Shown: positions 1-19,609, counted from the stretch's first letter. The stretch is DNA of 19,980 nucleotides from an uncultured archaeon (GCA_964493715.1 CAZBPC010000063.1:1-19980); one strand, 5' to 3'. The notes: generated by a model from the letters alone, not told the origin. Numbers and translations: made by a program.

Positions 1-380
1 ATGTCTTAAAAGAAATGAATAAAAAGGTGGATCTAGAGAAACTTGCAGATGATTTATTGTCAATTTCTGCGAGAGGGGGAACAAGAATACAAAGCGCTCT
101 TGAATGGGCTAGAAAACAGTTTAACGAAAATTCGAGTTCGCGCGAAAAGTTAAACGTGTTATTTACTGACGCAGAAATTTATGACATTCAACAAGCATTG
201 GAAGAATTGCGAAAATATCGCTCTCTTGGGATAGATTTCATATTGGTTTGCCCTGAAACTTCTTTTGACTTGAAAGAAGCGGAAAAGATAATAAAAGTAG
301 CGGGAGGGCAATTAATTACAATTAAAGATTGGAATGAATTTCCTAAATTAATTTCTGATATAATTAAATCGAGATTTTGA
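1..380 (+). CDS. von Willebrand factor type A (vWA) domain protein, C-terminal part (5' truncated by the window edge)
   Basis: The frame is open from the window edge (VLKE precedes the Met at 15). It contains the vWA/MIDAS-type motifs GGTxIxxAL and VLFTDAE, followed by the final beta-alpha units of a Rossmann-like fold. Confidence 0.8.
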   Translation, partial: VLKEMNKKVDLEKLADDLLSISARGGTRIQSALEWARKQFNENSSSREKLNVLFTDAEIYDIQQALEELRKYRSLGIDFILVCPETSFDLKEAEKIIKVAGGQLITIKDWNEFPKLISDIIKSRF

Positions 381-384
381 GGAA

Positions 385-2742
385 TTGACGAAAAATACAC
401 TATCTGAAATAATTGTAGAATTGTTTGATAAAGAAAAGGTCACAATAGCGTCAGAATTTCCAAATAATAAAATTAATATAATTTCTTGTAAAGAAGATCC
501 CATTCAAATTAGGAGTCTTGTCTTGGATAATGATCGAGAGTTTCATATCATTATCAATGAAAAAAAAAAGGAAATTTTTCATGATTGCCCAACATTTTTA
601 TTTGAAGGTGAAAGAAATGAAAAAATTTGCATTCATATAATTAAATTATTTCTATTGCTTAAAGATAATATTTCTATAAAGATTCTTAGAGAATTGAGTG
701 AGTATGAACTTAGCTATGAGGATTTTGGTTCCAAAAAAAAAAGTAAAAATTTTCTAGAATTAGCAAAACGATGTCTCGATTCCAACAATTGTATTGAGAG
801 CTTAAGTTATCTTAATAAAGCTATTCTAAACCAGAGTGATTGTGAGCCTATTATTGAAAAATATTTGGAAACTTCAATTAGTAATAATCTCTTCATCGAG
901 TTTTTTGAATTTCTTAAAAATGGATATGAGAATGAATTAGACGAGTTTTTCATAAAATACAGTAACTTAATTGAAAATGGTTTTTCCAAGTTTATGAAAT
1001 CCGTTTCCTTGTATTCATTTTTCGATATACTACGCATAGTAGAGTCCATAGATAGCTTTTTAGGAAGATATAAATTCCAAAACTCAACTTATCTTTTTTC
1101 ATTAACGAAAATTTTACTAGAACAGATAAAATCAGATAATTTTAACGAAGTTTATTTTTCTACTTTTTTTGTAAAGAAAAATCTAACGAAGTTGATGGAA
1201 ATAAATCCCAAGATCAATGAATTTGTATTACATGAAAATTTTGAAAATTTTAAGGAAAAAATTTTAGCTTATTTTTTTGAACAAATTGATAATTTCTGTG
1301 TTATCGACAAATTAGAATTAATGAAAAGGCAATTTGATGTATTTGAAATTCCAAAGGAAGCATATCTGTTAAAATATGATAATTACAGAAAAGAAATAGA
1401 TGCTTTAAAGAGAAAACTATATTTGAAAAAATTTGCTTTTATAAAACTACTAATTGATAAATATAGAATTAAAGTCACTAAAGTTGATTTAAGAAAACAA
1501 AGAAATACTTATATAATCAATCACGATAAAGAAAATTTAAAAAATTCTGCTTATAATTACATTATAAACCATATCGGGTTCACTGGAATAAATAATTCTA
1601 AAATCAAATCTTCAGAAATTGGTATTAATTATTTAATCATAAAAGAATTGTTTACTGATGATTTAAAGCCTTTTGCCGATATTTTTTACTATTATAAACA
1701 ATTTTGGGGAGAAGATGAGGATTACAATATAAACTTGATAGATGGATATTCTCTCTTGAGTAAACCCATCGAATATAATTATGATATTGATATGTCTAAA
1801 AATACAGAAGATATAACGATAATAGAATGGGATTTAGCCAGTAAGCCGAAACAAGGAAGTATAGTTAATGCATACGGCTCTCAAATAATAATTCCTGATA
1901 AAAACAATTCCCTTTTTCATGACTTAAAACCTTTTGATTTGTGTTATTGTTTAAAAAACCCCGTTAAAATTGAAGGAAGCGTTATAAAAACAGTTAATGT
2001 TTTGATGAAATGTTCCTTTGAAGATGCTATTAATAGCATCGCAAAAGGGATGACGTATATAGAGGGGTATTACCCTCTTTCACTTGTAAAGAAAGTAATA
2101 CAAAAACAACTTAACATTTTTGAAGCATATGAACTTGTAGCTAATGATCGAAATAAATCTTTTGTACCCAATTATCAAAATTTCTTAGAAGCATTTAAAC
2201 AATTTCTTTTTTCCTATATTGATAAAAACAAGGATTCAGTATTTAGCCAATTAAGATTAAATGAGGAAGAAAACCACACAAAGTTCTTGCTTTTATTAGA
2301 TTTAACTAACGAGTTAGCAGGAATGAATCTTCCTTATAAAGAAATAATTAGTAAATTACTTAAGACTGAAACCCATTTAAGTAGCTTTAGAGCAAGATTT
2401 CTTGAAGAAGTTCACTTATATATGAAAAATTTACTTGAAAATAATGGAATTGGGAGTACAAGGATCTTTAATTTAAAAAAGATGCACAACACGCCTTTTG
2501 TAAGATACATCGATGAAATTTCTAAGATTAGAAAAATAGAATTTGAAACTTCACTAATTAATATAAAAATTTTAGATGATAATATTGAATACAATCTTTC
2601 AGAAATCTGCAAAACCTATTATGGAGAAAAATTTTTGCATATCTTAAAATTAGAGAATCGTTCTTCATTAAATCGAAAAGATTTTAAGAAATTTGAAGCT
2701 CTTTCCAAAAAATTAAACCTTAAATTAAAAATTAATGATTAA
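385..2742 (+). CDS. SWIM-like zinc-finger protein with a long helical (partly TPR-like) body, 785 aa
   Basis: The N-terminal HDCPTF...KICIH matches a SWIM variant (HxC...CxH) preceded by beta strands. TTG start lies 4 nt after the vWA stop with GAGGA upstream, suggesting coupling. The rest is not recognised. Confidence 0.6.
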   Translation: MTKNTLSEIIVELFDKEKVTIASEFPNNKINIISCKEDPIQIRSLVLDNDREFHIIINEKKKEIFHDCPTFLFEGERNEKICIHIIKLFLLLKDNISIKILRELSEYELSYEDFGSKKKSKNFLELAKRCLDSNNCIESLSYLNKAILNQSDCEPIIEKYLETSISNNLFIEFFEFLKNGYENELDEFFIKYSNLIENGFSKFMKSVSLYSFFDILRIVESIDSFLGRYKFQNSTYLFSLTKILLEQIKSDNFNEVYFSTFFVKKNLTKLMEINPKINEFVLHENFENFKEKILAYFFEQIDNFCVIDKLELMKRQFDVFEIPKEAYLLKYDNYRKEIDALKRKLYLKKFAFIKLLIDKYRIKVTKVDLRKQRNTYIINHDKENLKNSAYNYIINHIGFTGINNSKIKSSEIGINYLIIKELFTDDLKPFADIFYYYKQFWGEDEDYNINLIDGYSLLSKPIEYNYDIDMSKNTEDITIIEWDLASKPKQGSIVNAYGSQIIIPDKNNSLFHDLKPFDLCYCLKNPVKIEGSVIKTVNVLMKCSFEDAINSIAKGMTYIEGYYPLSLVKKVIQKQLNIFEAYELVANDRNKSFVPNYQNFLEAFKQFLFSYIDKNKDSVFSQLRLNEEENHTKFLLLLDLTNELAGMNLPYKEIISKLLKTETHLSSFRARFLEEVHLYMKNLLENNGIGSTRIFNLKKMHNTPFVRYIDEISKIRKIEFETSLINIKILDDNIEYNLSEICKTYYGEKFLHILKLENRSSLNRKDFKKFEALSKKLNLKLKIND

Positions 2743-2749
2743 AAATCTA

Positions 2750-2899
2750 TTATAAATCTTCAAAACATAATTTTCCATAAAAATTATCATGTCCTGGGAT
2801 GTAGTAATATTTACCGTCTCGTATTTTATTGATTGCATCAATTATATTTGAAGGAACACCATCAAAATTGCTAGATCCTTCCCAAACATTATATCCTCC
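2750..2899 (-). pseudogene. Orphan 3' fragment of the EndoQ-like gene (about 49 codons, with its own stop)
   Basis: The reverse strand reads GGYNVWEGSSNFDGVPSNIIDAINKIRDGKYYYIPGHDNFYGKLCFEDL*, versus GEYNIWEGSSNFNSIPSNIIDAINKIRNGKYYYIPGHDNFYGRLCFENGE* at the end of 7013..8212. The upstream part of the gene is absent. Confidence 0.9.
2759..2899. repeat. Imperfect direct repeat, copy 1 (141 bp; partner at 7025-7165)
   Basis: Manual ungapped alignment at offset 4266 gives 13 mismatches in 141 bp (~91% identity). Confidence 0.95.
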
Positions 2900-2900
2900 A

Positions 2901-2916
2901 TAAAAAAAATTAAAAA
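2901..2916 (-). terminator. Possible oligo-T terminator of the 37-aa ORF
   Basis: The minus strand reads TTTTTAATTTTTTTTA about 30 nt after the stop at 2945. T-runs are common in this AT-rich DNA. Confidence 0.3.
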
Positions 2917-2944
2917 TAGTTTATTTGATTAATAAGCTTTTATA

Positions 2945-3058
2945 TTATGGTCCTCCACCACTTCCATTATAACCTAATACAACGCTAACCATAGGTAAAA
3001 AGGAAGTAATGCTAATTAATACAAATAAAAGAACGCTATATACTTTAAATAAATTCAA
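2945..3058 (-). CDS. Unannotated 37-aa protein, signal-peptide-like with a short Gly-rich tail (MNLFKVYSVLLFVLISITSFLPMVSVVLGYNGSGGGP)
   Basis: Translated by hand. TTG start lies 7 nt after an AAGGT SD-like motif (3066-3070). It has a Lys-containing n-region, hydrophobic core, Pro turn and V-L-G (-3/-1) site, and a TTTAAATA box upstream (3115-3122, minus strand). Confidence 0.6.
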   Translation of the reverse strand: MNLFKVYSVLLFVLISITSFLPMVSVVLGYNGSGGGP

Positions 3059-3209
3059 ATTAATTACCTTTTTATTAAATGAAATGAATTGATGTCATTT
3101 TTTCTATATTATTCTATTTAAACAGAAAGAATTTTCTAAATTAACAAAATTATTAATTCAATTTTTCTTTAAAAAGAAACAATTTATTCTATTCAAAAGG
3201 AGTTCTGAT

Positions 3210-3224
3210 GAAAAAGTTTAAAAA
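3210..3224 (+). promoter_or_regulatory. Putative archaeal BRE-TATA promoter of the 1215-aa gene
   Basis: GAAAAAG-TTTAAAAA about 45 nt upstream of the TTG at 3270. Confidence 0.45.
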
Positions 3225-3269
3225 GTAAATTACAGCATATTAAATTCAGGACAAAAATTAAATAACAAA

Positions 3270-6200
3270 TTGATAAATTTGGTTAACTCTCCTAATTTAG
3301 ATAGTTTGAAAAAATCTGTTATTGATGACCCTATTAAGATAAAACAGATATTCCTTTCTCTAATAAATGAGTTAAAAGCTTATCTAAATTTAGAAGTAAT
3401 CAATAAGAAAGTAAGAATAGATATTGTCGATGAAATTATAAAAATTATAGATTTTGATACAAGATTAACTAATTATGGAGTAAATAGATTTATTAAAGAG
3501 GGAGTATATCATATTAAACTCTTTAAGGATTATAAAGAGTTCTTCCCCTTTTTAATACTTCAAAGTGCTTATCTTATTTTTATTCCAAATAATTTAAAAG
3601 AAACCAATCTCATTGATTTTGTTATTAACCAATTTGTTGAAATAGATTTACAAGAATTCACATCAGCTAACGAATGGAAGTCGTTTATACGAGAAAAATA
3701 TGTAAATTACAATTTTCTAGCTAATCAATCTGATAAATTTCGCTTTGATAAATTCCTTGAATTAGAAGACAGTCACTCTACCGAAAGACCAAAACGGTAC
3801 TTTTTTGAATATGTTAGACGAAATCCCAACTTAAATTATGTTGATAATTTACATTTTACTCTTGGAAAAATATATGAAGATTTTATGTTCAAATCTTCAA
3901 AAAATTTACAGAGTAATGAGATTACAGAAACTCTTAGAATTTTAACTAAAATTTTCTACAAAATAAAAAACTGTGATACTTTGGAAGGATTTTATAACTA
4001 TTTTAAGTCTTTTAAAAATCAAGGAATCATCCATACCGATTTAAGTTTGCGGAGATTCAGTAAAAACTTACGGTGGATAAATACATATAGTTACATAACC
4101 CCCACATATTATTTCGATTGGAAAGCACTTAATATAGCTCTTTTAGTATGCTATCTTAAATTTAATCCCCTTTTAGAAAAAGCTCAAATTGATAAGATAA
4201 TTAACCAAATGCCATTTATAATTATGCCAAAGCTTTCGGTAACTAATTTTTCTGTAGAATTATCAGCATTTTTTGTCATTCCAGAGATATATGTAGAAGA
4301 TTTGAAATTTATGTTAGAAAAAATGGAACAAAATGGATATATAATAAAAAAATTTTGTTCTTTAGCAAAAAAATATGTTTTTTCCTTGAATTTAAATTAT
4401 TTTAGAGAATCTTATAAAAGTGGTCAAATAATTAACCATAATAATAAAAAACACTCAAAAGACTACGAACTCGAATTTATTCAGAATTATAGTAAAAAAT
4501 TTAGTAAAGCAAATCTTACACTCTTAGATTTTTTAATTTTGGAGAGAATAAGATTCTTTTCCTATGTTGGAATAAACTTTTCAAGAAGAAAGGAAATTTC
4601 TAATATAATAAAATCCGATTATTATAATTTTTTCTTAAGTGAAAATGGTTTAACTAAAGAATTAGAAAAAAGTTTACAAGCATTAATTGATTCTCCTATA
4701 CTCCGAAAAGATTTCCTTAATTTTTTAGTTAGAAATGAAAACTTTGGGTTTTTCTATATTAAGGATGAGTTAGAAAAATGGGTGAATTACTCTCAAATAA
4801 TTGAAAAAGAATCGAAAGATACTATGAATGATTTTATTCAATTTAAAGAATTTTATGAGAAAGAGCACACCTTACAATTAATTGAAGAATATGGTATTTT
4901 TGACATTGTAGATCTAAATTCCTATACTTTTAAAAATCTCTTCTTAGATTATTTAAATTCTAGAGAAAAATATGTAAAAGAACTTGAAAAATTCCGATTT
5001 TTTTACCAATTTTTAAAATTATGCTCTAATTTAAAAATATTTAATATCAAATCAATTAAAAGTATAATTTCTAATCTAGAATTATTAAAGGAAATTACTC
5101 AAATAAAAAAAGAACGCCTTAGAGATTTAAAAAAAAATAATAAAATTTATGAAATATCGAATAAAACAATCAATCTTAGGATCAATGAATTTATTAATAA
5201 TAATCCAAAGATAATCAAACCTTATTTAATTGATAGTATTTGGACAAACTCAATCTCAAGCTATTTTCCTCAATTAATTTTAAAGAATTCACCAGAAGTT
5301 AAAGTCATAATTGATAAAATTAAAAAGTGGCTTCCAAAAATTTATTTCTACGAAACAACAGATTTATTCGATAAGCAAGAATATATCTTCTTACAACTTT
5401 TTATCCCATATTTGAAGCATAACGAAAAAATTATGTTTGTATCAATTTTATCTAATATTTTTAAAAAAAACATTATTTCTTTTAAAAGATTTTCTTGGAA
5501 CGGATTATTACAGACTTTTTCAAGAAAAGATTTTTATGATTTCAATAAGAGAGCATTTTTCTATACTAAAGATCTTTTTGACCAATATTTTCTTTATATT
5601 AAAGGAGTTTTGGGTGTAGAATTAAAACCATTAAAAAAAAAATCAGTTAGTACGATTAATCATTGGTCTAAAAAAGAAAATATGGCAAATCTTATTAAGA
5701 AAATCAACAGAAGAATTAGATCTGAATGTATCAGTTTTAATCCAAATGATATTCAAAAATTAATACATTTTCACTTAAATCTTGAAAAATATTTTATGAA
5801 TAAAGAAGAATTTCAAATAATAAAAAAAGAAAATTTCTTTAGACAATATATAAAATCAATAAAACTACTTCCTGCTTTCCAAAATTTTGGATTAGGGCAA
5901 TATTTTTTATATATTACTCCTTTTGATGTAGAAGATGTAGATTTCAAAATATTATTTACTAATACCTTTCAAAAAATTAAGCATATTGCATCAATTAGTA
6001 GTTCTAATTCCTTGTTTATTAAATATCTATTTCCTTATAATAAGCCCAATACTTCATACATTAACTGGTTGAGAAGCAAAAACAAAATTAGAGAATATTG
6101 CCTATTTACTATTAATTCTATGTCTCAGATTTTCCATTTCAGCTATAATTTAAGTTCAAATGGATGGTATTTAGATCCTAATAATTTTAAAACTTATATA

Positions 6201-6917
6201 CAAAACATTCTTTTCAATCCAAATTATAAAACTCCAACCTCAGAAGTGAAAAATTTTGATATTGGTGATTTATTAATTCCAGATTATTATAAACCAGATT
6301 CTCCCTATTTTAAAGCTTTATTACAGATATATAATTGGCATTCTATTGATATTAAGGAAAAATATAATATTATTAACCAATCTATCTTCGATGACATTCA
6401 AGCTTTAATTAAAAAAAAAATCATCTTTCCCTTTATTACTCCAAAAAATTTAGGATTGAATGAAATTATCCAAATTATTTTGTTAAATCTAAAAAAAGAT
6501 ACAATTGATATACTTAAATGCATGTTTCAGTATTTCAATTTAGGTTTTGTTTACGAAATTGAAGGAGAGTATTATATACACGGATTTAATGAGAAGAAAA
6601 AGATTTATAGTGGACTAATGATCAAATTATATCTTCCAGATTGCGAACTTGGTGAATTTTTAAGAATTTTTGAATACATATTTCAATACTTAAAGGTTGA
6701 GAAATATTTGATATTAACTGATTTGGTTAAAGCTGACTCTATTATCAAATCGGTCTATGGAAATAACAATTTTCTTGAAAAATATAATCCCATACAGAAT
6801 TTAATTTGGGATAAAAAAACTAAAAAGTGGGTGAACCATAAATTGTTTAGTAAGAATTTTGAATATTTGTATCCTGAATTAATTTTAAAAGGAGGATCTC
6901 ATACGAGTTTAAACTGA
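3270..6917 (+). CDS. Large 1215-aa protein with about four tandem Lrp/AsnC-like (HTH plus ferredoxin-like RAM) modules; putative regulator or sensor
   Basis: Long intact ORF with no obvious TM segment. Recurring helix-linker-beta/alpha units: ITPTYYFDWKALNI (~aa 275), IIKPYLI (~aa 650), LLPAFQNFGLGQY (~aa 866), LIKKKIIFPFITPKNLGLNEI (~aa 1045). These resemble the Lrp linker. The fold assignment is by eye only. Confidence 0.5.
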   Translation: MINLVNSPNLDSLKKSVIDDPIKIKQIFLSLINELKAYLNLEVINKKVRIDIVDEIIKIIDFDTRLTNYGVNRFIKEGVYHIKLFKDYKEFFPFLILQSAYLIFIPNNLKETNLIDFVINQFVEIDLQEFTSANEWKSFIREKYVNYNFLANQSDKFRFDKFLELEDSHSTERPKRYFFEYVRRNPNLNYVDNLHFTLGKIYEDFMFKSSKNLQSNEITETLRILTKIFYKIKNCDTLEGFYNYFKSFKNQGIIHTDLSLRRFSKNLRWINTYSYITPTYYFDWKALNIALLVCYLKFNPLLEKAQIDKIINQMPFIIMPKLSVTNFSVELSAFFVIPEIYVEDLKFMLEKMEQNGYIIKKFCSLAKKYVFSLNLNYFRESYKSGQIINHNNKKHSKDYELEFIQNYSKKFSKANLTLLDFLILERIRFFSYVGINFSRRKEISNIIKSDYYNFFLSENGLTKELEKSLQALIDSPILRKDFLNFLVRNENFGFFYIKDELEKWVNYSQIIEKESKDTMNDFIQFKEFYEKEHTLQLIEEYGIFDIVDLNSYTFKNLFLDYLNSREKYVKELEKFRFFYQFLKLCSNLKIFNIKSIKSIISNLELLKEITQIKKERLRDLKKNNKIYEISNKTINLRINEFINNNPKIIKPYLIDSIWTNSISSYFPQLILKNSPEVKVIIDKIKKWLPKIYFYETTDLFDKQEYIFLQLFIPYLKHNEKIMFVSILSNIFKKNIISFKRFSWNGLLQTFSRKDFYDFNKRAFFYTKDLFDQYFLYIKGVLGVELKPLKKKSVSTINHWSKKENMANLIKKINRRIRSECISFNPNDIQKLIHFHLNLEKYFMNKEEFQIIKKENFFRQYIKSIKLLPAFQNFGLGQYFLYITPFDVEDVDFKILFTNTFQKIKHIASISSSNSLFIKYLFPYNKPNTSYINWLRSKNKIREYCLFTINSMSQIFHFSYNLSSNGWYLDPNNFKTYIQNILFNPNYKTPTSEVKNFDIGDLLIPDYYKPDSPYFKALLQIYNWHSIDIKEKYNIINQSIFDDIQALIKKKIIFPFITPKNLGLNEIIQIILLNLKKDTIDILKCMFQYFNLGFVYEIEGEYYIHGFNEKKKIYSGLMIKLYLPDCELGEFLRIFEYIFQYLKVEKYLILTDLVKADSIIKSVYGNNNFLEKYNPIQNLIWDKKTKKWVNHKLFSKNFEYLYPELILKGGSHTSLN

Positions 6918-7012
6918 AATATGAGATGAAATTTTTAGAAATTAAATTTGAAGAAAATTACTTCCTGATAGTTTAATTTGTTAGGATATAGTAAATTTTA
7001 ATAACAAATAAT

Positions 7013-8212
7013 TTATTCTCCATTTTCAAAACATAATCTTCCATAAAAATTATCATGTCCTGGGATATAGTAATATTTACCGTTTCGTATTTTATTGATT
7101 GCATCAATTATATTTGAAGGAATACTATTAAAGTTGCTTGATCCTTCCCATATGTTATACTCTCCTTGATTTTTTTCCACAATTTTATGATATATTTCTA
7201 AGTTTTTCCTGTTATATTCTGAATTCTTATTTATAATAGCAATCAATTGAAGGAGAGGAATGATATATTGAAATTTATCGCTATTTACACCCTCTTGGTC
7301 TTTTAATTCATAAATTCGAGATAACACCCCTTTGGTAAGTCTCTTTCCACAATAAGGGCAATCAATATTATTTCGCTTGGGGCTACAAAAATAGTCAATT
7401 CCATCATCATGCCTTTCTCCTCTATGTCCATCATAATAATATTTACCTCCAGAAGGTTTAAATTCATAGGTCTTAACTATCTTATTCATTCTTATAGATT
7501 TAATAATTTCCCGGTATTTTAATCTATTAGGCACATATAATTTTGTTGCTTCTCTGCCAAGTCTATGAAAATTCACTGAATGAGCATCAGAATTAGATAA
7601 AATAGTTAAATCATCTAATTCTGATAGATTTCTAATTAATATTGGATCAGCACTTAATCCAGATTCAATAGCATTAACGTGTTTCCTTCCCTCTCCTAAT
7701 GCTTCTTTAAGAGATTTAAATTTACATTGAGCGCCTAAGATACCAAAATATGGCGTAAAAATATGAGCCGGTATTATTTCAATTAAAGAATCGATTTTTT
7801 TTAACCCTATTATAAAATTTTCAGCCGATAAGTAAACTTTAGGTCTCCCATCCTCTGCTAATGCTCCATGAGCTGAAAGAAATTGATAGACTTCATTCAA
7901 AACATTAAAATTAGGAATTAAGATTATGAAATGTACTTTTTTAAGTTCTCCCTCTATTTTCCAGATGAGTTCTATTTCGGTTTGTAAGATAAATTTAATT
8001 TCAGGAATTTTAGGATGATAATAAATACCATTATCAGATTCTTCAAGTTCAAACTGTAATTGCTTAAACCAAGATGGATGTAAACAATCTCCTGTACCAA
8101 CAATTTCTAATCCTTTTACCTTACTATTTAAAGCGATGTTGAAAATCGTTATTCGTTCGCTAGTTCCCCCAGAAAATTTGCTATGGATGTGTAAATCAAC
8201 AAGGATCTCCAT
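7013..8212 (-). CDS. endoQ: Endonuclease Q family (PHP domain plus Zn-finger; TIGR00375-like) DNA repair nuclease
   Basis: Motifs DLHIHSKFS, KGLxxVGTGD, HFIIL, DGRP, IPAHIFTP, ESGLSAD, SNSDAHS, LGREAT, GKYYYDGH, CPYCG..LTKGV..R and a C-terminal PGxDxxYG. Confidence 0.85.
   Translation of the reverse strand: MEILVDLHIHSKFSGGTSERITIFNIALNSKVKGLEIVGTGDCLHPSWFKQLQFELEESDNGIYYHPKIPEIKFILQTEIELIWKIEGELKKVHFIILIPNFNVLNEVYQFLSAHGALAEDGRPKVYLSAENFIIGLKKIDSLIEIIPAHIFTPYFGILGAQCKFKSLKEALGEGRKHVNAIESGLSADPILIRNLSELDDLTILSNSDAHSVNFHRLGREATKLYVPNRLKYREIIKSIRMNKIVKTYEFKPSGGKYYYDGHRGERHDDGIDYFCSPKRNNIDCPYCGKRLTKGVLSRIYELKDQEGVNSDKFQYIIPLLQLIAIINKNSEYNRKNLEIYHKIVEKNQGEYNIWEGSSNFNSIPSNIIDAINKIRNGKYYYIPGHDNFYGRLCFENGE
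7025..7165. repeat. Imperfect direct repeat, copy 2 (inside the 3' end of the EndoQ-like gene)
   Basis: Partner of 2759-2899; 13 mismatches and no indels. Confidence 0.95.
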
Positions 8213-8288
8213 GGTATATCTAAAAATCTAGTTTACATATATCTTTTATTTAGAATTTTTAAAATCCACTAAGATCTTCATAACGTAG

Positions 8289-8308
8289 GGAAAAATTGTT
8301 TATAAAAA
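8289..8308 (+). promoter_or_regulatory. Putative BRE/TATA in the divergent endoQ-coaBC intergenic region
   Basis: GGAAAAATTG-TTTATAAAAA. The TTTATAAA core is palindromic and could serve either direction. Confidence 0.4.
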
Positions 8309-8395
8309 GTTAGAAATTATAGGGATGTGTTTCCATTATTTTTATATTCCAAATGAAATTTAATTACATATAAATATATGATATAATGATAAATT

Positions 8396-9676
8396 ATGGT
8401 TCGAGAGAACGCGCACCACCCATCAAAAGATATCGTTGAGAGCAAGGGTACAATTCTTAGAGGAAAAACAATATGCATGTGTTTAACTGGGTCGGTAGCT
8501 GTAATAAACGCTCCAATTATCGCGAGAGAATTGATGCGATTAGGTGCTGAAGTTTTCGCAGTAATGTCAAAGGCAGCTACAGAATTAATTAACCCTTCTT
8601 TAATGCATTGGGCTACAGGTAATCCCGCTATAACTAATTTAACGGGGGAAGTAGAACATGTTTTTTTTGCGGGAAATAGACCTAAAGTTTTTGGAAAAGC
8701 AGATCTAATCTTAGTATGTCCAGCTACGGCAAATACGATATCAAAAATTGCTAATGGAATAGACGATACTCCTGTTACTACATTTGTTTCTACAGCGTTT
8801 GGATCAAATATTCCGATTGTAATCGTCCCTGCGATGCATGAGAGCATGTATCATCCTATTCTTGAACATAACATTTCATTATTAAAAAAATATGGTATGG
8901 ATATTTTAGGACCAAGAATTTCTGAAGGGAAAGCTAAGATTGCAAAAGTGGATGACATAATTGACCGAGTTATCGATTTAATAATTGCCAAGAGAGATTT
9001 AGAAGGACTTAAGATATTAATAACAGCAGGACCCACAAGAGAATACATTGACGAGATTAGGTTCGTTTCAAATAAATCATCGGGGCGGATGGGTGTTGAA
9101 CTTGCTAAGGATGCATCAGCAAGGGGAGCGGATGTAGTATTGGTTGCAGGGAAATGTATGGTAAAAATTCCCGATTATGTAAATACGATCAATGTGGTCT
9201 CCTCAGATGATTTCATAAATGCGGTTAAAAATGAATTATCCTATAAAGATTTTGATATTTTCATATGTGCTGCGGCTATTTCTGATTATAAACCAATAGA
9301 TTGTGTTGAAGGTAAGATCTCTTCTGATGATGTTAAGGAGCTCCAAATTAATATGAGATTAACTCCTAAAGTTATCAACGTAGCTCGTAAGAAAAACTAT
9401 AAAGTATTTATCGTTGCTTTTAAAGCAGAAACTAATGTTTCAAGAACTGAACTTATCGATAGAGCTTATGAGAGGTTATTAAGTTCCCAAACAGATTTAA
9501 TTGTGGCTAATGATGTAGGTAGGGAAGATGTGGGCTTTGGAAGCAAGGAAAATGAGGTATATATCATCAATAAAGCAAAACAAATCTCACATATTGAAAA
9601 AGCTTCTAAAAGATATATAGCTTCTAGGATATTAGATATAACATTGGAAAACTTCCGAATAAGAAACATCAAATAA
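8396..9676 (+). CDS. coaBC: Bifunctional phosphopantothenoylcysteine decarboxylase/phosphopantothenate-cysteine ligase (archaeal type)
   Basis: CoaC motifs TGSVA, VEHV, PATANTISKIANGIDD, PAMHESMY, EGKAK. CoaB motifs ITAGPTREYIDEIRFVSNKSSGRMG, AAAISDY, AFKAET, DLIVANDV. Confidence 0.96.
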   Translation: MVRENAHHPSKDIVESKGTILRGKTICMCLTGSVAVINAPIIARELMRLGAEVFAVMSKAATELINPSLMHWATGNPAITNLTGEVEHVFFAGNRPKVFGKADLILVCPATANTISKIANGIDDTPVTTFVSTAFGSNIPIVIVPAMHESMYHPILEHNISLLKKYGMDILGPRISEGKAKIAKVDDIIDRVIDLIIAKRDLEGLKILITAGPTREYIDEIRFVSNKSSGRMGVELAKDASARGADVVLVAGKCMVKIPDYVNTINVVSSDDFINAVKNELSYKDFDIFICAAAISDYKPIDCVEGKISSDDVKELQINMRLTPKVINVARKKNYKVFIVAFKAETNVSRTELIDRAYERLLSSQTDLIVANDVGREDVGFGSKENEVYIINKAKQISHIEKASKRYIASRILDITLENFRIRNIK

Positions 9677-9900: not shown

Positions 9901-12900
9901 ATTTCATCTGATGAGGAAGGTACAATCAAGCAAGGTACAATAGCACAATTTATGCGTAAAAGAACACAATTAGTGGGTTTTGAATTCGGATACTGGAAAC
10001 ATTCTCAATATATAACAGAGTTCTTAGATAATTGTTTAGATGCTATTGAAACGTTTCATTGGAATGAAATCGAAAAATCTGATTCAAGAAATAAATTTTC
10101 TTTGGATCAAGAAACAGCCTTAGAAAATTTATCACTAATTCAAGATTTCTTAGAAGAAGGAGAAGCAGATAATAATGGTAAAGAGGAATTATCAATAGAT
10201 AAAGAAGAAGAGGCAGGAGAAATAATTGACAAAGCTGAAATTGAAGTAGAAGAAGAAGTCCAGCGAATTTTAGAGGACATTGATGAACTTTTAAAACCTG
10301 TTATTGCTTTAGTCGATATAGAGCCAATCGTAGTCGTTAGATTAAGAGAATCTGAGCCTCCGTCTTTTTTAACATCGGAATTGTCACAAAAAAATGTAAT
10401 GAATTATACTTTAGAGATATTTGATAATGGAATCGGAATGAGTAAGGGAGATCTTCGTAAATTTGGAAAATACTTAGCAAGTTCAAAAAGTGTTGAATTA
10501 AAACAGACTCGAGGTAGTCAAGGTTTTGGAGCTCCAAGTGCTTTTTCAGATGCCCAAAATACAACTGGAAAACCTATCATTGTAGCCTCTAAGACTATCG
10601 ATATGGTGTATGCCAATGCATCTGAGTTTTTCACTACTTCAAAGAATGAAAAACGTTATTTAATACATCCTGTTGATGTTGATAGCCCTTTTGGTCATGG
10701 GACATACATTAAATTAAATTATTTAAATGTGAAATATGTGAGGGGTTATGTAGATACTTATATAAATGAGACTGCGTTGATGAATCCTCATGTCACAATT
10801 CTTTTCATTGATCCTTATGGGGAACATATAACATATCCAAGATTAGTATCATCATTTCCAAAACAACCTAAATATGCTAAACCACACCCTTCATCAACCA
10901 ATATAGGTGATCTGCAGGATCTTATAGCAAAATCAGAAAACTTAACTGTATCTGCATTTTTACAAGAAAATTTTGTGCGAATTAGCCCTAAAACCGCGAA
11001 AGAGATCATAAATATTGCTGAAAAAGAATTACAAGATAAAAATAATCTACTTATCCTTGAAGAGGGATTCATTACAAAATCAAAGAATAAAGAGGATCCA
11101 ATTTACTTTATAAAGAATGAAAAAAGGGTGTATGGACGCTCAGAAAAACCAAGAGATAAGCTCATTTTTTATCTATTAGATTCTGAAGACTTAAAGAACG
11201 ATTACTGGAATCTAATTAATGAGATTAATAAGTGCGATAAAAACCTTATAAATATAGATAAAACTATAAGAAAACATAATCGTCGAAAAGAAACAATTGA
11301 TACAAAAAAAGAACAAAAAAAAATCGAGAAAGATGTGGATAATCTAGTAAAAGAAATTGAAAATATCGATAAACAAAAAGAAGAAATAAAAAATCAAATA
11401 TATAATTTAATTAAACGGAATGAATCAGGATTAATTGAACAAAAAAAATTTATTTCTCGGGCTGAATATGAAGATGTAATTCGAGAAGTTCAAATTTCTA
11501 AAGCTAAACCTGTTGAATTGACTAATGAACAATTCAATTCTCTTTTTCATGCGTTTAAATCAATAAAATATATGGCCCCACCAACTGATACCGCTATACC
11601 CGTTGGGGATATAGTATTAGAAAATACTTTAGTAAAAGAAATCGGTCTAAAAATATCAGAAAATATCGAAGATTTTGATGATCCTGTTTCAAACCTTGTG
11701 TCTGTTAAGGAAAATTTATTGAAAGAGAAGAAAAAGCAAAATGCTTTATCAAGTGAAGATACTCCTTTAGATCACAGCGTAATTGATAGTGAAATAGAAA
11801 TAACGGTCTCAAGAATTCTCGCAAGTTATGATATTTTAGATAATAATGGAGATCCAAATGAATTCAATATTTTTTTTAATAAGATACTTAAAAACTTAAA
11901 TGATGACTTAAGAAGTAGTTATCGTGAACTATTAAATTATTTTACCGATGTCCATTCAAAAGATGATGATTTTGTTTCTGCAGAAACAAGACCTCCAACA
12001 AGTGGTAAAGGTTTAGCATATGTGGTTGAAGCAGCTTTGGCATATTGTAATGATCCTAAAAAATTAGATACTCCTAAACGTTCAAGGGATGTTTTATCTA
12101 GATTTGTAAATCGTACGCCCAAATTGAGAGATAGTGCGGAATGTGCTATAACTAAAGCAGTTCAATCTGTTAATTGGAAAAATTACAAACTAGACACCTT
12201 TGATAACAACTTACCGAAAGGTCCTATTAAACTTTTAGTTAACGTTTCAGGTCCTTATGTACATTTAATGTTTAAATCTCAATCTAAAAATGCGTTAGCA
12301 GATGATGAGGAATTAATTAAGGAGATTAAATATTGTTTAGAAGCAATTGCAAGACGTTTAAGAGCATATTTGAATAAAAAAGATACATTTAGAAAGACAG
12401 AAAAACGATCAAGTGTCATTGAAAAATATATTCCCAAATTTGTAGAGAGTCTATTTAATATTGTGAAAACTACAGAAAGTGAGTATAAAAATAAAACCTC
12501 TCCAGAAGAATTAGAACTGTTAATGAAAGAAGCAATTGGTAAAAAAGTTATGCCTAAATTAGCTACAGAACCAAAAATAGAGAAAAATGTTATACCAGAA
12601 CAAGAAGAGAGAAAAGAAATCCCTAAAGAAATTGAAATTGAATGGGAAAAAGAACCTGTTGATAAAGAAAGTAGAGATGAAGATCAAAAACCTAAGAAAG
12701 AGATTTTTTCTGAAAAAACTCTATTAAAATGGACAATTAGAGAATTAATAGAGTACAGTAAAGAATTCGGGATTTCCATTTCACCAAATTCAAGAAAAAT
12801 TGATATAATTAAAGAAATACAAGCTCGCTATAAAACTGAAGCTATCATTGAAAAACCAACGATAGAAGTAGAGGACGAGCTTGTCAAACTTGTTTCGAAA

Positions 12901-13209
12901 AGACCTGAATCTATTGAAAATCTAATTACTATTGAAGAAGGTAAACCTATAAAAAAACCTTCACAAAAACCAAAACTTAAGAAAACAATTCCCCAGACCG
13001 TTCAAACAACCTTACCCGTTATTACAACAGATAAAATTTTAGCAACACTTAACAATGAATGGCAAAACATAACACATCTTATCTTCAATTTAAAAATTAA
13101 AGATATGATGGATGCAAGGTATCTCCAGAATCGTTTAAAAGAATTGGTAAGGAGAGATAAAGTGGAAATGTTAATTATTAAAAATAAGAAACATTGGAAA
13201 TTAAAATGA
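9901..13209 (+). CDS. top6B: DNA topoisomerase VI subunit B, enlarged (~1100 aa); probable ATT start at 9901 (first ATG at 9952)
   Basis: GHKL motifs EFLDNCLDA, DNGIG, QTRGSQGFG and GT; NPH and KPHP; H2TH region; transducer motifs RFVNRTP and FKSQSK. It lies directly upstream of top6A. Confidence 0.93.
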   Translation: MSSDEEGTIKQGTIAQFMRKRTQLVGFEFGYWKHSQYITEFLDNCLDAIETFHWNEIEKSDSRNKFSLDQETALENLSLIQDFLEEGEADNNGKEELSIDKEEEAGEIIDKAEIEVEEEVQRILEDIDELLKPVIALVDIEPIVVVRLRESEPPSFLTSELSQKNVMNYTLEIFDNGIGMSKGDLRKFGKYLASSKSVELKQTRGSQGFGAPSAFSDAQNTTGKPIIVASKTIDMVYANASEFFTTSKNEKRYLIHPVDVDSPFGHGTYIKLNYLNVKYVRGYVDTYINETALMNPHVTILFIDPYGEHITYPRLVSSFPKQPKYAKPHPSSTNIGDLQDLIAKSENLTVSAFLQENFVRISPKTAKEIINIAEKELQDKNNLLILEEGFITKSKNKEDPIYFIKNEKRVYGRSEKPRDKLIFYLLDSEDLKNDYWNLINEINKCDKNLINIDKTIRKHNRRKETIDTKKEQKKIEKDVDNLVKEIENIDKQKEEIKNQIYNLIKRNESGLIEQKKFISRAEYEDVIREVQISKAKPVELTNEQFNSLFHAFKSIKYMAPPTDTAIPVGDIVLENTLVKEIGLKISENIEDFDDPVSNLVSVKENLLKEKKKQNALSSEDTPLDHSVIDSEIEITVSRILASYDILDNNGDPNEFNIFFNKILKNLNDDLRSSYRELLNYFTDVHSKDDDFVSAETRPPTSGKGLAYVVEAALAYCNDPKKLDTPKRSRDVLSRFVNRTPKLRDSAECAITKAVQSVNWKNYKLDTFDNNLPKGPIKLLVNVSGPYVHLMFKSQSKNALADDEELIKEIKYCLEAIARRLRAYLNKKDTFRKTEKRSSVIEKYIPKFVESLFNIVKTTESEYKNKTSPEELELLMKEAIGKKVMPKLATEPKIEKNVIPEQEERKEIPKEIEIEWEKEPVDKESRDEDQKPKKEIFSEKTLLKWTIRELIEYSKEFGISISPNSRKIDIIKEIQARYKTEAIIEKPTIEVEDELVKLVSKRPESIENLITIEEGKPIKKPSQKPKLKKTIPQTVQTTLPVITTDKILATLNNEWQNITHLIFNLKIKDMMDARYLQNRLKELVRRDKVEMLIIKNKKHWKLK

Positions 13210-16288: not shown

Positions 16289-19200
16289 GTGATCCACGTT
16301 TTGTTAGGAGAATTAGCGATAATAATCATATTCATAGTATTCTTTTTTATTGGTTTTTTTATTATTTACAAACAAGTAGCTTTAGTTAAAAAAGGAGAAT
16401 TTAGTTTTATTGACCGGCTGCAATGTTTGTTTTATGGGCTTATATTCAGTATTGCAGTGATGGTTGTTGTAGGAATGGCTTTCATTTTTGCTGATAATGC
16501 ACTCCATCCTCTCATATTAATAATTCCTTTTGCAATATGTCTTGTGTACATTTCAATCTATCCTCTCATTGATTTCTTATTTATTGCTCTTAGTGAAGAA
16601 GCAGATGAAGGTTTAACACCATTTCACAGATACATAAGTAAAAACATCATAAATAAATCAAGTAATAAAATAATCTCAGCTATAGTGGCACTATTATTAT
16701 ATTTCTTTTTAATTATTCCACCAATATTAATATCTTTAATGGGATTTCCTTTTCAAACCTTATGGATCTCTTGGATGCTATTTTACCCCCTCTTGATATT
16801 GACATATTATGGGTCTAAAGGATATATATCCGGAATTTCACATCAATATTATCATATACCCGATATTAAGAGATCTATTTTCTTGAATTTTGAAGATAAT
16901 AAAAGAGGGTTGCGTCAATTTCTAACTGATCCCTCACCATTCATTATGCTAGGATTAATGATGTTTGTTTTTGTATGGGCATGGATCTCACTTTTCCAAA
17001 CTATAGGATTCTTTTTTACTGGATCTTTAGCAATTTCTACGATGTCTTCGTATTTTGTATATGTTACTCTGTTTTTTGGAATTGTAGGATATTTTACTCG
17101 ATTTTGGGGTCGAAAAATTAAGTATCGCGGAATTGATATCTATTTCGCAGCATATTTAATGGCCGCAATTGGTATAAATGTTTTAGTTAATTTTTTAATT
17201 GTAAATATTGATATTCTATCAAGTTCTTTTAATTATTGGTCTTTTACAGCAGGAATCGTACCCGTTTCTAATAGCTTTGCTTGGCCTGCTGTTATTGAGG
17301 AAACAATTTTGATAATTATAACATCCTATTACTTTCTTGTAAAAAAGAACGAGTTCAAATTTAATATTAAATATTCCAAAATAACAGAATGTGGTCAAAC
17401 TTTTGATCCAATTCCACTATTTAATTTTATTAAAAATCCAGATAAAAAACTAAGAGAATATGCTGAAAATACCTTACTATTAATGTATGAACGAATACCT
17501 TTGAAGTCAAAAAAATATTTGAACGATTGGAAATTTAAAAACTCACTGATTGATGGGATATGTGATCCAAATCCTAATTCCAGAAAAATATCAATTAAAA
17601 TTTTGATACAATTAGAGAGTGATGTTCCTGATATTGTGTTGCCCTGGATTGAGGAAGCTCTTGAGTCTCCAAATTATGATAAAAGCATTTCTGTCGCTCG
17701 CACTCTGTTAATAAATGATAACCAATTAGTTGAAAGATTGCCTGAAAATCTTCTTATCAATCTTATCAACGATCCCGAATGGAGGTTAAGATTAATAGGT
17801 ATAAAATTACTGGGAAAAATAAATTTGCAGGAAGATGAATTAATTTCAAAATTTAAATTAATTGAAATTCTTAACGATCCAAGTGTAAATATCCAAGTAG
17901 AAGTACTAAAATTATTATCTGAGTCATCTTATCAGATCCCTCAGAAAATCATTTTTGAAAAACTCTCCTATTCACAACAAAAAATTAAAGCTGCTGCAAT
18001 TCAATGCTTAAATAATATTGATATACAGAAAATTGATTTGAATTTAATATCAAAGATTATTCCTTTTATGAAAGATCCTAGGAAGTCAGTTAGAGCTTCA
18101 ATGTTCGACATTATATCGAAAATCGGTAACTTTAAGAAATTATCGATTCCAATATCACCTATTTTAGATGGATTGACAGATTCAGCAGAGAACGTGAGAA
18201 ATTCAGCTGTAAATGCTTTGGAAAAATACATTAATGAATCCCCAAAAGCCTTAGATTTAGATACGATTATAAATAAAATCGATATTTCAAATATGGGGGT
18301 TGTAACCAGTATCATAACACTTCTGGGAAAATTATGGCATTATAATCCTGAAAAAATATTATCCACATTATTAAAATATATAAAACTCGGAAATAATGAA
18401 GTAAAGCAAAAAATTTCATCAATTTTAACTCAAAAATCAGAGGATGAGACGCTTTTTATCTTAAAAAGACTGTTGCTCTTGGAAGATGATTCTGGATTCA
18501 TATCAAAAGGCGTTGTATCTACAACAGTTTCTAAAATTGCATCTAAATATCCTGTCGAAGTAATACCCACTTTACACGAATGTTTGACATCAGAGGATCC
18601 AAATATTGTCTTAAATGCGATCCTCTCTTTAGAAAGTTTAATAGAAAATAATAGTGAAAGATTAAATTTAGCAGAAATCATTAAGATTTTAAAACCAAGA
18701 TTAGAACCAAAAATTAAAAAGGAAATAGCTCAAATTATTTCTAAAATAGCGAAAAAAAACCCAACTATGTTAAAACCCGTGATGAACGATTTGTTAATGT
18801 CAATTGAAGATTTAGATCCTAATTCAAGGATAATGCTGATGAAATCGTTTCTTGAGATTGTAAAAAATTATCCTGAACTTATTCCAATAGGTTTTGTATT
18901 TTCATTTTTGCAGGATAATGATTCATTTGTCAGGGAAACAAGCACTAAAATTTTAGGATATATCGGTGATATAGATCTAGTAGAATCTACTGATGCTCTT
19001 ATTAATTTTTCATTAAAAGATGATGAATGGATCGTTCGAGATGCTGCCGTGTTAAGTTTAGGAAGACTTATCAACAAATTTAAAGGTAATGAGGAAATTA
19101 TTGGAAAATTGGTCATACTATTAGAAGATAAAAATAGTTGGGTTAAGAGATCAGTAATGAATTTATTATCCTCAATTTCAGGCTTAGATCCAGATAAAAT

Positions 19201-19609
19201 TCCTTTTAATATCGTTGAGAAAAATCTAAAGAATGAAGATCCGAAGATTAGAGAAGGCTTGGCTAATCTTTTGAAAATTTATGGATTTACAAAAATTGAT
19301 ATGATTTTTGATTCTATCCTATTATTATTGGGTGATGAATCAAAAGATGTGCGTAATAATATGATTAACTCAATGGTTAGCATTATCCAAGAAAAAGGAT
19401 TAGCTGAAATCCTATCAAAATTACTAAAAAATCTGAGTGATGAGGGATCAATTACATCACAACAATCTATTGCCATAATCTTAGGTCGAACAGCGAGATA
19501 TGAAGAAGAAAAAATGAAAAAACGCATCATTGCCTTATTAAAAATTAGGTGTGAAGCATCTCAAGATCCAATTATATGTGAAACCTTGAACAAGTTAAAA
19601 GAAGACTAG
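16289..19609 (+). CDS. Polytopic membrane protein (~9 TM helices) fused to a ~750-aa HEAT-repeat alpha-solenoid
   Basis: Residues 1-352 contain about 9 hydrophobic stretches. The remainder has many HEAT signatures: LINDPEWRLR, MKDPRKSVR, LTDSAENVRNSA, LQDNDSFVRE, LKDDEWIVRDAA, LEDKNSWVKR, LGDESKDVR. Confidence 0.85.
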   Translation: MIHVLLGELAIIIIFIVFFFIGFFIIYKQVALVKKGEFSFIDRLQCLFYGLIFSIAVMVVVGMAFIFADNALHPLILIIPFAICLVYISIYPLIDFLFIALSEEADEGLTPFHRYISKNIINKSSNKIISAIVALLLYFFLIIPPILISLMGFPFQTLWISWMLFYPLLILTYYGSKGYISGISHQYYHIPDIKRSIFLNFEDNKRGLRQFLTDPSPFIMLGLMMFVFVWAWISLFQTIGFFFTGSLAISTMSSYFVYVTLFFGIVGYFTRFWGRKIKYRGIDIYFAAYLMAAIGINVLVNFLIVNIDILSSSFNYWSFTAGIVPVSNSFAWPAVIEETILIIITSYYFLVKKNEFKFNIKYSKITECGQTFDPIPLFNFIKNPDKKLREYAENTLLLMYERIPLKSKKYLNDWKFKNSLIDGICDPNPNSRKISIKILIQLESDVPDIVLPWIEEALESPNYDKSISVARTLLINDNQLVERLPENLLINLINDPEWRLRLIGIKLLGKINLQEDELISKFKLIEILNDPSVNIQVEVLKLLSESSYQIPQKIIFEKLSYSQQKIKAAAIQCLNNIDIQKIDLNLISKIIPFMKDPRKSVRASMFDIISKIGNFKKLSIPISPILDGLTDSAENVRNSAVNALEKYINESPKALDLDTIINKIDISNMGVVTSIITLLGKLWHYNPEKILSTLLKYIKLGNNEVKQKISSILTQKSEDETLFILKRLLLLEDDSGFISKGVVSTTVSKIASKYPVEVIPTLHECLTSEDPNIVLNAILSLESLIENNSERLNLAEIIKILKPRLEPKIKKEIAQIISKIAKKNPTMLKPVMNDLLMSIEDLDPNSRIMLMKSFLEIVKNYPELIPIGFVFSFLQDNDSFVRETSTKILGYIGDIDLVESTDALINFSLKDDEWIVRDAAVLSLGRLINKFKGNEEIIGKLVILLEDKNSWVKRSVMNLLSSISGLDPDKIPFNIVEKNLKNEDPKIREGLANLLKIYGFTKIDMIFDSILLLLGDESKDVRNNMINSMVSIIQEKGLAEILSKLLKNLSDEGSITSQQSIAIILGRTARYEEEKMKKRIIALLKIRCEASQDPIICETLNKLKED

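Follow-up and report, generated by a model that had tools for sequence, protein, structure and literature searches.

Can archaea communicate through short peptides that are exported and then read by a regulator inside the cell? According to an excerpt from a 2026 review (PMC13419125), archaea show quorum-sensing-type responses, and the signals are unknown except for carboxylated acyl-homoserine lactones in methanogens. The question arises here from two divergent genes, one encoding a 37-amino-acid (aa) precursor peptide and the other a 1215-aa protein, on a contig from an uncultured Asgard archaeon (GCA_964493715.1 CAZBPC010000063.1). We analysed the whole 19,980-bp contig (hereafter the window), which belongs to a host genome of 3.68 Mb (G000) with a G+C content of about 20-36%. 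A first-pass annotation of this DNA had proposed that the two genes form an archaeal communication module.

Our best reading is that the small gene encodes an exported peptide signal and the large gene its cytoplasmic receptor-regulator. We hold this reading tentatively and rate its chances a shade below even, as export, cleavage, re-import, binding of the peptide, DNA binding and feedback are all steps that we infer. What speaks best for it is the linkage of the two genes, selection on the small gene, the co-clustering of peptide tails with large-protein clades, diversified tandem copies, movement of the pair as a unit, the predicted fold of the large protein, the variability of its head and a parallel arrangement of micro-ORFs (open reading frames, ORFs, of a few codons) in another clade.

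Conservation of the 37-aa precursor gene

The 37-aa ORF has a short n-region with a single lysine, a stretch of about 23 hydrophobic residues, the residues V-L-G and an 8-residue tail, YNGSGGGP. ORFs of 37-38 aa that begin with TTG and end in G-[SD]-GGG-[PG] are conserved upstream of large-protein orthologues, in head-to-head arrangement and at a distance of 211-278 bp (loci L091, L099 with two tandem copies, L101, L119, L120, L121 with two copies, L122 and L123); these orthologues share 52-87% identity with the window's protein. G114, a genome from another genus, has the very same tail, YNGSGGGP, and the last 21 nt of the tail codons are identical in the metagenome contig L091; other tails in this subfamily read YAGSGGGP, HKGSGGGP, WKGDGGGP, WEGSGGGP, YIGDGGGP, DHKGSGGGP and NHEGSGGGG.

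Substitution patterns depend on the depth of comparison. Between the window and L091, eight of the changed codons are non-synonymous and two synonymous, and the frame would have stayed open with a chance of 58% under random substitution, so that this shallow comparison is uninformative. In the deeper comparison with L101, synonymous changes in the peptide gene outnumber non-synonymous ones (14 vs 9 for G114 vs G073, and also 13 vs 8). L101 carries a large-protein fragment that is 52% identical to the window's protein over the aligned stretch, and DNA identity to L101 is 74% in the peptide gene and 66% in the large gene (stretch aligning to the window). Because copies have been kept beside diverged orthologues and substitutions at depth are mostly synonymous, we conclude from these alignments that the 37-aa ORF is a real gene. 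It is also not the truncated start of a longer secreted-protein gene, a possibility that the first-pass annotation had raised against its own proposal, since the relatives are likewise 37-38 aa long and end at the same stop.

A wider family of predicted secreted-peptide precursors

Precursors of similar design are found with other clades of the large protein. They are 37-51 aa long, with a basic n-region, a hydrophobic core and mostly an A-x-A site, and they end in tails such as EFYPSGQGGP, NWFPPGGGMP and VGSFFPGGGVP. Judged by inspection, the relatives may have Sec-type signal peptides cleaved by signal peptidase I. The peptide family may be described as lineage-specific signal-peptide precursors with glycine-rich tails of 8-11 residues that are predicted to be exported. 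A profile of the first 13 members scores the members at 45-69 bits and everything else at no more than 17.7 bits, in a comparison over 92,722 frames from the window's genome and 11,069 from the loci. A crude filter for a hydrophobic stretch and a glycine-rich end, applied to all of G000, was passed by 11 of 24,273 ORFs of 25-75 aa, and three of these 11 are family members.

Profile matches occur in 12 of the 41 genomes of the genus, and with a larger profile 43 of the taxonomic family's 133 genomes gave matches. The peptide genes counted below come from loci picked from profile matches, fetched and rescored; they do not amount to a complete census, and the related genomes among them are not independent. 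Some 20 weak or partial matches of the larger profile, including all those in genus g12, lie outside this set; they either cover no more than model positions 1-28 or 1-34 or have E values above about 1e-4.

Of 59 peptide genes, 35 have a large-family gene at most 1 kb away; they are spread over 25 loci in four genera (g1, g14, g22 and g23). Most of these (28) are head-to-head upstream of the large gene, five are downstream on the same strand and two are upstream on the same strand. The expectation that homologues of the large protein would carry adjacent signal-peptide ORFs of fewer than 60 aa with short, variable tails was thus borne out. Tandem copies have diversified: G114 has YNGSGGGP beside WKGDGGGP, and two or three copies are found at other loci.

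Some peptide genes stand alone, including three of the window's own subfamily. An 11-member subgroup with a conserved cysteine and the ending VS[IFY]PGC.EG.P (L106, L108-L115, L117 and L118; genera g16 and g21) never adjoins a large gene and is situated among housekeeping genes. Another stand-alone gene in the window's genome (G000:C34:289-396; L097, and also L093 and L095), with the tail YMFPGGGVP, is at a locus conserved in three genomes, beside genes for two membrane proteins (236 and 275 aa) and a 457-aa protein with weak Pfam matches only.

Peptide types, large-protein clades and micro-ORFs

We built a tree from 42 intact large genes of the genus, to which 11 loci were later added. Peptide tail types follow the large-protein clades in this combined set. 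In the 42-gene tree, the nine large genes with peptide neighbours fall into three clades. A further clade is made up of 26 large genes located beside a transporter of the major facilitator superfamily (MFS), which matches PF07690 with 48.5 and 37.8 bits (cut-off 33.4).

Within the MFS-linked clade, an eight-member subclade has a glycine-rich micro-ORF head-to-head with the large gene, 165-336 nt upstream, in all seven loci for which upstream sequence is available. These micro-ORFs are 8-9 codons long, or 12 in two loci when read from an ATG lying further upstream, and encode peptides such as MPYGGENGG and MPAQEGDG, which are about the size of the predicted cleaved tail. Their density upstream of the large genes of this subclade is 0.61 per kb vs 0.079 per kb in the remainder of the same loci. 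None passed our filter (ATG start, 6-16 codons, at least two glycines in the last five residues) in the other 18 MFS-linked loci.

The 1215-aa protein

The large protein (P0001) has a highest Kyte-Doolittle 19-residue mean of 1.36, so no membrane helix is expected, in agreement with its earlier description as soluble. The database copy starts three codons later and is 1212 aa long. A database search gave 90 homologues; those with a named source are proteins from metagenome-assembled genomes of Promethearchaeota, Lokiarchaeota or Hermodarchaeota, all of them annotated as hypothetical. P0001 matches no Pfam family at E <= 0.01 and no NCBIfam family. Of the 132 genomes of one taxonomic family (13 genera), 116 encode a member of its family, with about 170 matching places in all, and none of the 26 genomes searched from other families of the class does. 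Three copies of the large gene are present in the window's genome; the third (G000:C87:10016-13334; L014, L015) is broken by several stop codons.

We examined predicted structures of the full protein (predicted local distance difference test, pLDDT, 75; predicted template modelling score, pTM, 0.60) and of residues 1-415 modelled separately (pLDDT 78). The predicted domains are given in Table 1. About 30 full-length Lrp/AsnC proteins lead the Foldseek list for the first Lrp/AsnC-like unit (E 3e-4 to 2e-2, probability 0.99-1.00, about 150 columns), and the VIA comparison gave Z scores of 8.7 (148/156 aligned), 8.3 and 8.2 (138/140). In the model with pLDDT 78 this unit comprises both an N-terminal winged helix-turn-helix (HTH) and a C-terminal RAM fold (beta-alpha-beta-beta-alpha-beta), the architecture of Lrp/AsnC regulators, but P0001 has neither the Pfam HTH_AsnC-type/AsnC_trans_reg signature nor the form of a single unit of about 150 aa. 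The C-terminal tandem best matches NirDL (Foldseek E 4.6e-4; VIA Z 12.4, root-mean-square deviation 5.4, 270 aligned, identity 10%). All scores from the Protein Atlas were below 0.9, and these leads point to archaeal HTH_24/AsnC-type hypothetical proteins. The label 'multi-Lrp-like' given to the protein by the first-pass annotation therefore fits its predicted fold.

The wing and RAM folds are those of the 'feast/famine' regulators (E. coli Lrp, AsnC, B. subtilis LrpC, Pyrococcus FL11 and LrpA), whose RAM domains bind small ligands. Those regulators are about 150 aa long, consist of one unit and oligomerise, whereas P0001 appears to have several units fused within 1215 aa behind a head and a long helical region. 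NirDL and AhbAB (siroheme decarboxylase) are covalent tandems of two Lrp/AsnC-like units, as predicted for the C-terminal part of P0001; however, identity is 10%, no heme-pathway gene is present in the cassette or the window, and the likeness speaks to the fold rather than to the activity.

The head resembles the catalytic domains of M1 (gluzincin) aminopeptidases in the VIA comparison (Z 7.4-8.2, 155-169 aligned), and Foldseek returned no significant match for it. Among the heads of 22 relatives there are 0-4 histidines each, none of them at a conserved position, and no HEXXH motif with a downstream glutamate. A HEXXH-type zinc site is thus lacking and the head cannot be an active zincin; on the predicted model it would be at most a dead-enzyme fold. 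It is the most variable structured domain in the window's clade, with a mean pairwise identity of 0.70 vs 0.76 overall. A co-fold of residues 205-1165 with the 37-aa precursor (score 0.19, mark 0.32) answers neither way whether the two proteins bind.

The shared control region

The two ORFs diverge across 211 bp. Two blocks of this region are conserved across nine loci of the window's clade: one contains a TATA-like motif and a palindrome close to the peptide gene, and the other a TATA-like motif before the large gene. The TATA-like boxes reported earlier for both directions, putative promoter elements, thus fall in conserved sequence.

Insertion and movement of the two-gene unit

The two genes are the sole genes of a 4,266-bp insertion, as the first-pass annotation had proposed for what it called an islet. 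The insertion is bracketed by a 179-nt direct repeat (Table 1) whose copies are 85% identical, are spaced 4266 apart and enclose both genes; compared over 147 nt, they are 89% identical. The repeat is a duplicated 3' end of a TIGR00375-family gene (7013-8212). Empty sites are present in four of the five relatives examined (G006, G022, G004 and G008), in which the TIGR00375-family gene adjoins a 785-aa gene convergently and nothing between the two matches the large protein; in the fifth stretch (G005:C188) there is no 785-aa homologue. Both marks of an integrative element, direct repeats at its ends and relatives with an empty site, are therefore found, and the islet is real. The 785-aa gene itself (window 385-2742), left of the insertion, belongs to no Pfam or NCBIfam family and is found beside the TIGR00375-family gene in four relatives with 52-85% identity.

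The left repeat copy runs on into the native left flank just as the sequence does at the empty sites in G006 and G022, and its translation shares 83% identity over 48 aa with the C-terminus encoded by the TIGR00375-family gene. Identity to G006 and G022 is 90-92% for the left copy and 86-89% for the right copy, the latter being the level of the gene's next 300 nt, and this comparison singles out neither copy as the original. Contigs of four DNA runs over positions 1800-8400 bridge both junctions, also in a relative about 92-94% identical, and none of them skips the insert. No RNA run that holds this sequence was found among 24 sequencing runs. Between the repeats there is no integrase or transposase, the only further ORF of at least 60 aa being one nested 60-aa frame, and our family and structure comparisons gave no sign of a recombinase in the large protein. 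No flanking repeats were found within 4.5 kb of 21 other large-gene loci, and L091, whose left flank is only 113 nt long, has no clear terminal repeats or target duplication.

Two other origins of the 37-aa ORF were considered and rejected. A longer gene might have run through two TAA stops into an in-frame downstream fragment, but this fragment stems from the duplication of the TIGR00375-family gene's 3' end, and the 37-aa ORF is therefore not a remnant of such a longer gene; judged from the junction sequence, the frame that it shares with the displaced fragment is a coincidence of the junction. A remnant of the 5' end of the MFS gene was rejected because the ORF scores only 2.8 bits against a profile of the MFS protein and the match is internal.

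The same two-gene cassette recurs elsewhere in different surroundings. L091, the one locus returned by our metagenome scan, is 89.8% identical in nucleotide sequence to window positions 2902-6878, and L099, from G114, is 87.4% identical to positions 2902-6891, while the flanks of both are unrelated to those of the window. The left boundary of the cassette is just beyond a T-rich stretch after the stop of the peptide gene and the right boundary is the end of the large gene. At the protein level, the window's large protein is 81% identical to that of G114, its nearest relatives are all from G114's genus, and the best match in its own genus is only 54% identical (G052). Close database homologues are 66-81% identical, with gene context among them covered for G114's copy (L099). 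The occurrence of the same cassette with unrelated flanks, together with closest proteins in another genus, points to horizontal acquisition of a two-gene unit that, on this sequence evidence, moves between genera.

Three further observations concern mobility of large-family genes. P0037 is an 860-aa database protein annotated 'transposase, partial', one part of which is 86% identical to 57% of P0001 and is joined to a TnpB/OrfB zinc-ribbon (PF07282); it probably reflects insertion of an IS200/IS605-type element into, or next to, a gene closely related to the large gene. In two genomes a tRNA-Ile(GAT) gene (L032:5488-5561 and L033:5845-5918) directly adjoins the peptide/large-gene module and is a possible integration site. 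Loci L016-L035 represent one chromosomal position, by a gene of 475-485 aa (family F2), at which large-family genes vary in orientation and clade among genomes, which suggests a replacement hotspot.

A peptide signal and its receptor?

If the favoured reading is right, the small gene would be expressed as a 37-aa precursor from which a Sec-type signal peptide is removed at export, leaving an 8-residue glycine-rich peptide that ends in proline. The 1215-aa cytoplasmic protein would be its cognate sensor-regulator, with the variable, catalytically dead peptidase-like head, the RAM-type pockets, or both, binding the re-imported peptide. Its Lrp-type winged helices might then act on the shared 211-bp control region and so feed back on both the production of the peptide and the expression of the large gene itself.

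This logic resembles that of the RRNPP systems of Bacillota and phages (Rap/Phr, PlcR/PapR, NprR/NprX, Rgg/SHP and AimR/AimP), in which the active part of the precursor is its C-terminal few residues. There, as in the cassette, a gene for a short exported precursor (export being a prediction here) adjoins the gene for a cytoplasmic receptor-regulator, whether head-to-head or on the same strand and downstream, the precursor genes become duplicated and their tails diversify, and the genes are found on mobile DNA. In contrast, the large protein has no tetratricopeptide repeats (TPRs) and no XRE-type HTH, has no Pfam match and is about three times larger; it has a zincin-like head and Lrp/AsnC-like units instead, its host is an Asgard archaeon, and peptide binding and import are presumed for the cassette. 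With no TPR domain and no family match, the cassette is not a member of RRNPP but, by analogy, is a system that would work like one. We found no paper on this family of large proteins and peptides or on peptide signalling in Asgard archaea, which agrees with the earlier statement that no system of this kind has been described.

Several observations weigh against this reading. The window's own peptide is a sequence outlier: against a profile of the other 12 first-found members it scores 8.7 bits (E 7.2), compared with E <= 4e-4 for the others, so that its membership in the family rests on its own subfamily and its context. With about 23 residues its h-region is long, and it has V-L-G where its relatives have A-x-A, a stronger cleavage site; the 37-mer could stay in the membrane. 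No large-family gene is found within the roughly 5 kb fetched on each side of 24 of the 59 peptide genes, the 26 MFS-adjacent large genes among the 42 in the tree have no signal-peptide gene nearby, and the same is true of G052, the nearest relative of the window's protein in its own genus. The cassette carries no importer. The fold matches of the head are of only middling strength, and, because the Lrp/AsnC fold also occurs in enzymes (NirDL and AhbAB), the fold alone does not establish DNA binding. The proposal of an archaeal communication module is thus supported in part: the adjacent small ORFs, their completeness and the Lrp-like fold of the large protein hold up, but signalling is still a proposed function, given the MFS-adjacent large genes and the peptide genes that stand alone.

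The alternative that survives best, although we consider it unlikely, is that the large protein simply controls the peptide gene and that the exported peptide is an unsensed outside effector (e.g. antimicrobial, adhesive, or metal- or surface-binding). The shared conserved control region, with its palindrome adjoining the TATA-like motif of the peptide gene, and the predicted Lrp-type winged-helix units would suit such a regulator and its target, and the 24 peptide genes without an adjacent large gene appear to function without one. Nevertheless, it is of ligand-receptor pairs that one expects peptide types to track large-protein clades and tandem tails to diversify, and a protein of 1215 aa with a variable peptidase-like head would be elaborate for a simple local regulator.

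We regard it as quite improbable that the cassette makes a product similar to ribosomally synthesised and post-translationally modified peptides, with the small gene encoding the precursor and the large protein serving through its head as a scaffold, chaperone or processing factor. The peptidase-like fold predicted for the head and the MFS transporter beside the micro-ORFs of one clade would both make sense in such a pathway. However, the head has no conserved metal ligands, there is no tailoring enzyme in the 4-kb cassette and modifying enzymes were not seen in the loci examined, where no systematic search for them was made, and a Sec-type signal peptide would export the precursor away from a cytoplasmic enzyme.

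It is also possible, with little probability in our view, that the 37-mer is an uncleaved, single-pass membrane micro-protein, for instance one that acts as a toxin or in addiction to a mobile cassette, with the large protein as its controller. The hydrophobic stretch, the single n-region lysine, the weak V-L-G site and the mobility of the cassette fit this idea, but relatives have canonical n-h-c regions and A-x-A sites, and the short tail is conserved while the signal region varies. In addition, the leaderless 8-9-codon versions are too short to span a membrane. Finally, a chance ORF in AT-rich intergenic DNA, with which the mostly non-synonymous differences from L091 and the poor profile score of the window's peptide would be compatible, is highly improbable and already contradicted by the retention of a 37-38-aa ORF with a TTG start and a G-[SD]-GGG-P end beside diverged orthologues and by the excess of synonymous changes at depth.

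The signal-receptor reading may be extended into a bolder form that we regard as possible and hold with considerable doubt. The cassette would then represent the first archaeal peptide-pheromone system, in Asgard archaea, with a signal that is an exported glycine-rich peptide of 8-11 residues or, in some clades, a leaderless peptide released through the MFS exporter. The receptor, of a new class, would combine a dead aminopeptidase-like head that grips the free N-terminus of the peptide with an Lrp-type array for DNA and ligand binding, 'dialects' would arise by tandem duplication, and cassettes would pass between genera.

If the signal-receptor reading is true, a compact cassette of peptide and receptor would offer a concrete handle on archaeal signals (synthetic octapeptides, one protein and a 211-bp control region), and the logic of an exported peptide read by a cytoplasmic regulator would have evolved independently from unrelated parts. 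Should signalling prove wrong, there would remain a family-wide protein of about 1200 aa of unknown function, an unannotated family of predicted secreted peptides and a clean case of cassette transfer between genera.

Features of the locus and other genes of the window

The features discussed above are listed in Table 1.

Table 1. Positions of the cassette, its parts and the flanking repeats in the window (protein features by residue of P0001)
Feature	Position	Strand	Remarks
Left repeat copy	2721..2899	-	non-functional, displaced copy of the TIGR00375-family gene's 3' end; coding remnant about 2753-2899
Conserved two-gene cassette	2902..6891	.	peptide gene with 3' T-rich flank, intergenic control region and large gene; recurs elsewhere with different flanks
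Pre-peptide gene	2945..3058	-	37 aa, TTG start; signal-peptide-like N-terminus, glycine-rich tail
Codons of predicted mature octapeptide, YNGSGGGP	2948..2971	-	putative cleavage after V-L-G; tail aligned with relatives
Control region	3059..3269	.	divergent; 91% identical to L091; motif roles putative
Shine-Dalgarno-like AAAGGTAAT	about 3063-3072	-	
TATA-like motif, peptide gene	3115-3122 (+ strand coordinates)		conserved block, 9 loci
Palindrome AGAAAGAATTTTCT	3124-3137		adjoins TATA-like motif of peptide gene
TATA-like motif, large gene	3216-3225		conserved block, 9 loci
Large gene, P0001	3270..6917	+	1215 aa, TTG start; predicted cytoplasmic
Predicted zincin-like head	residues about 16-211		
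Predicted Lrp/AsnC-like unit	residues about 210-380		followed by helical region
Predicted RAM-like domain	residues about 650-740		
Predicted NirDL-like tandem of Lrp/AsnC-like units	residues about 826-1198		
Right repeat copy	6987..7165	-	functional 3' end of TIGR00375-family gene (7013-8212)

Topoisomerase VI A and B and CoaBC are also encoded in the window. The topoisomerase VI B gene (window 9952-13209) encodes 1085 aa, whereas the profile is about half as long (539) and matches in two separate stretches, so that the subunit carries large insertions. An ORF of 1106 aa (window 16289-19609) has only weak, sub-threshold matches of HEAT-repeat/PBS-lyase-like type.

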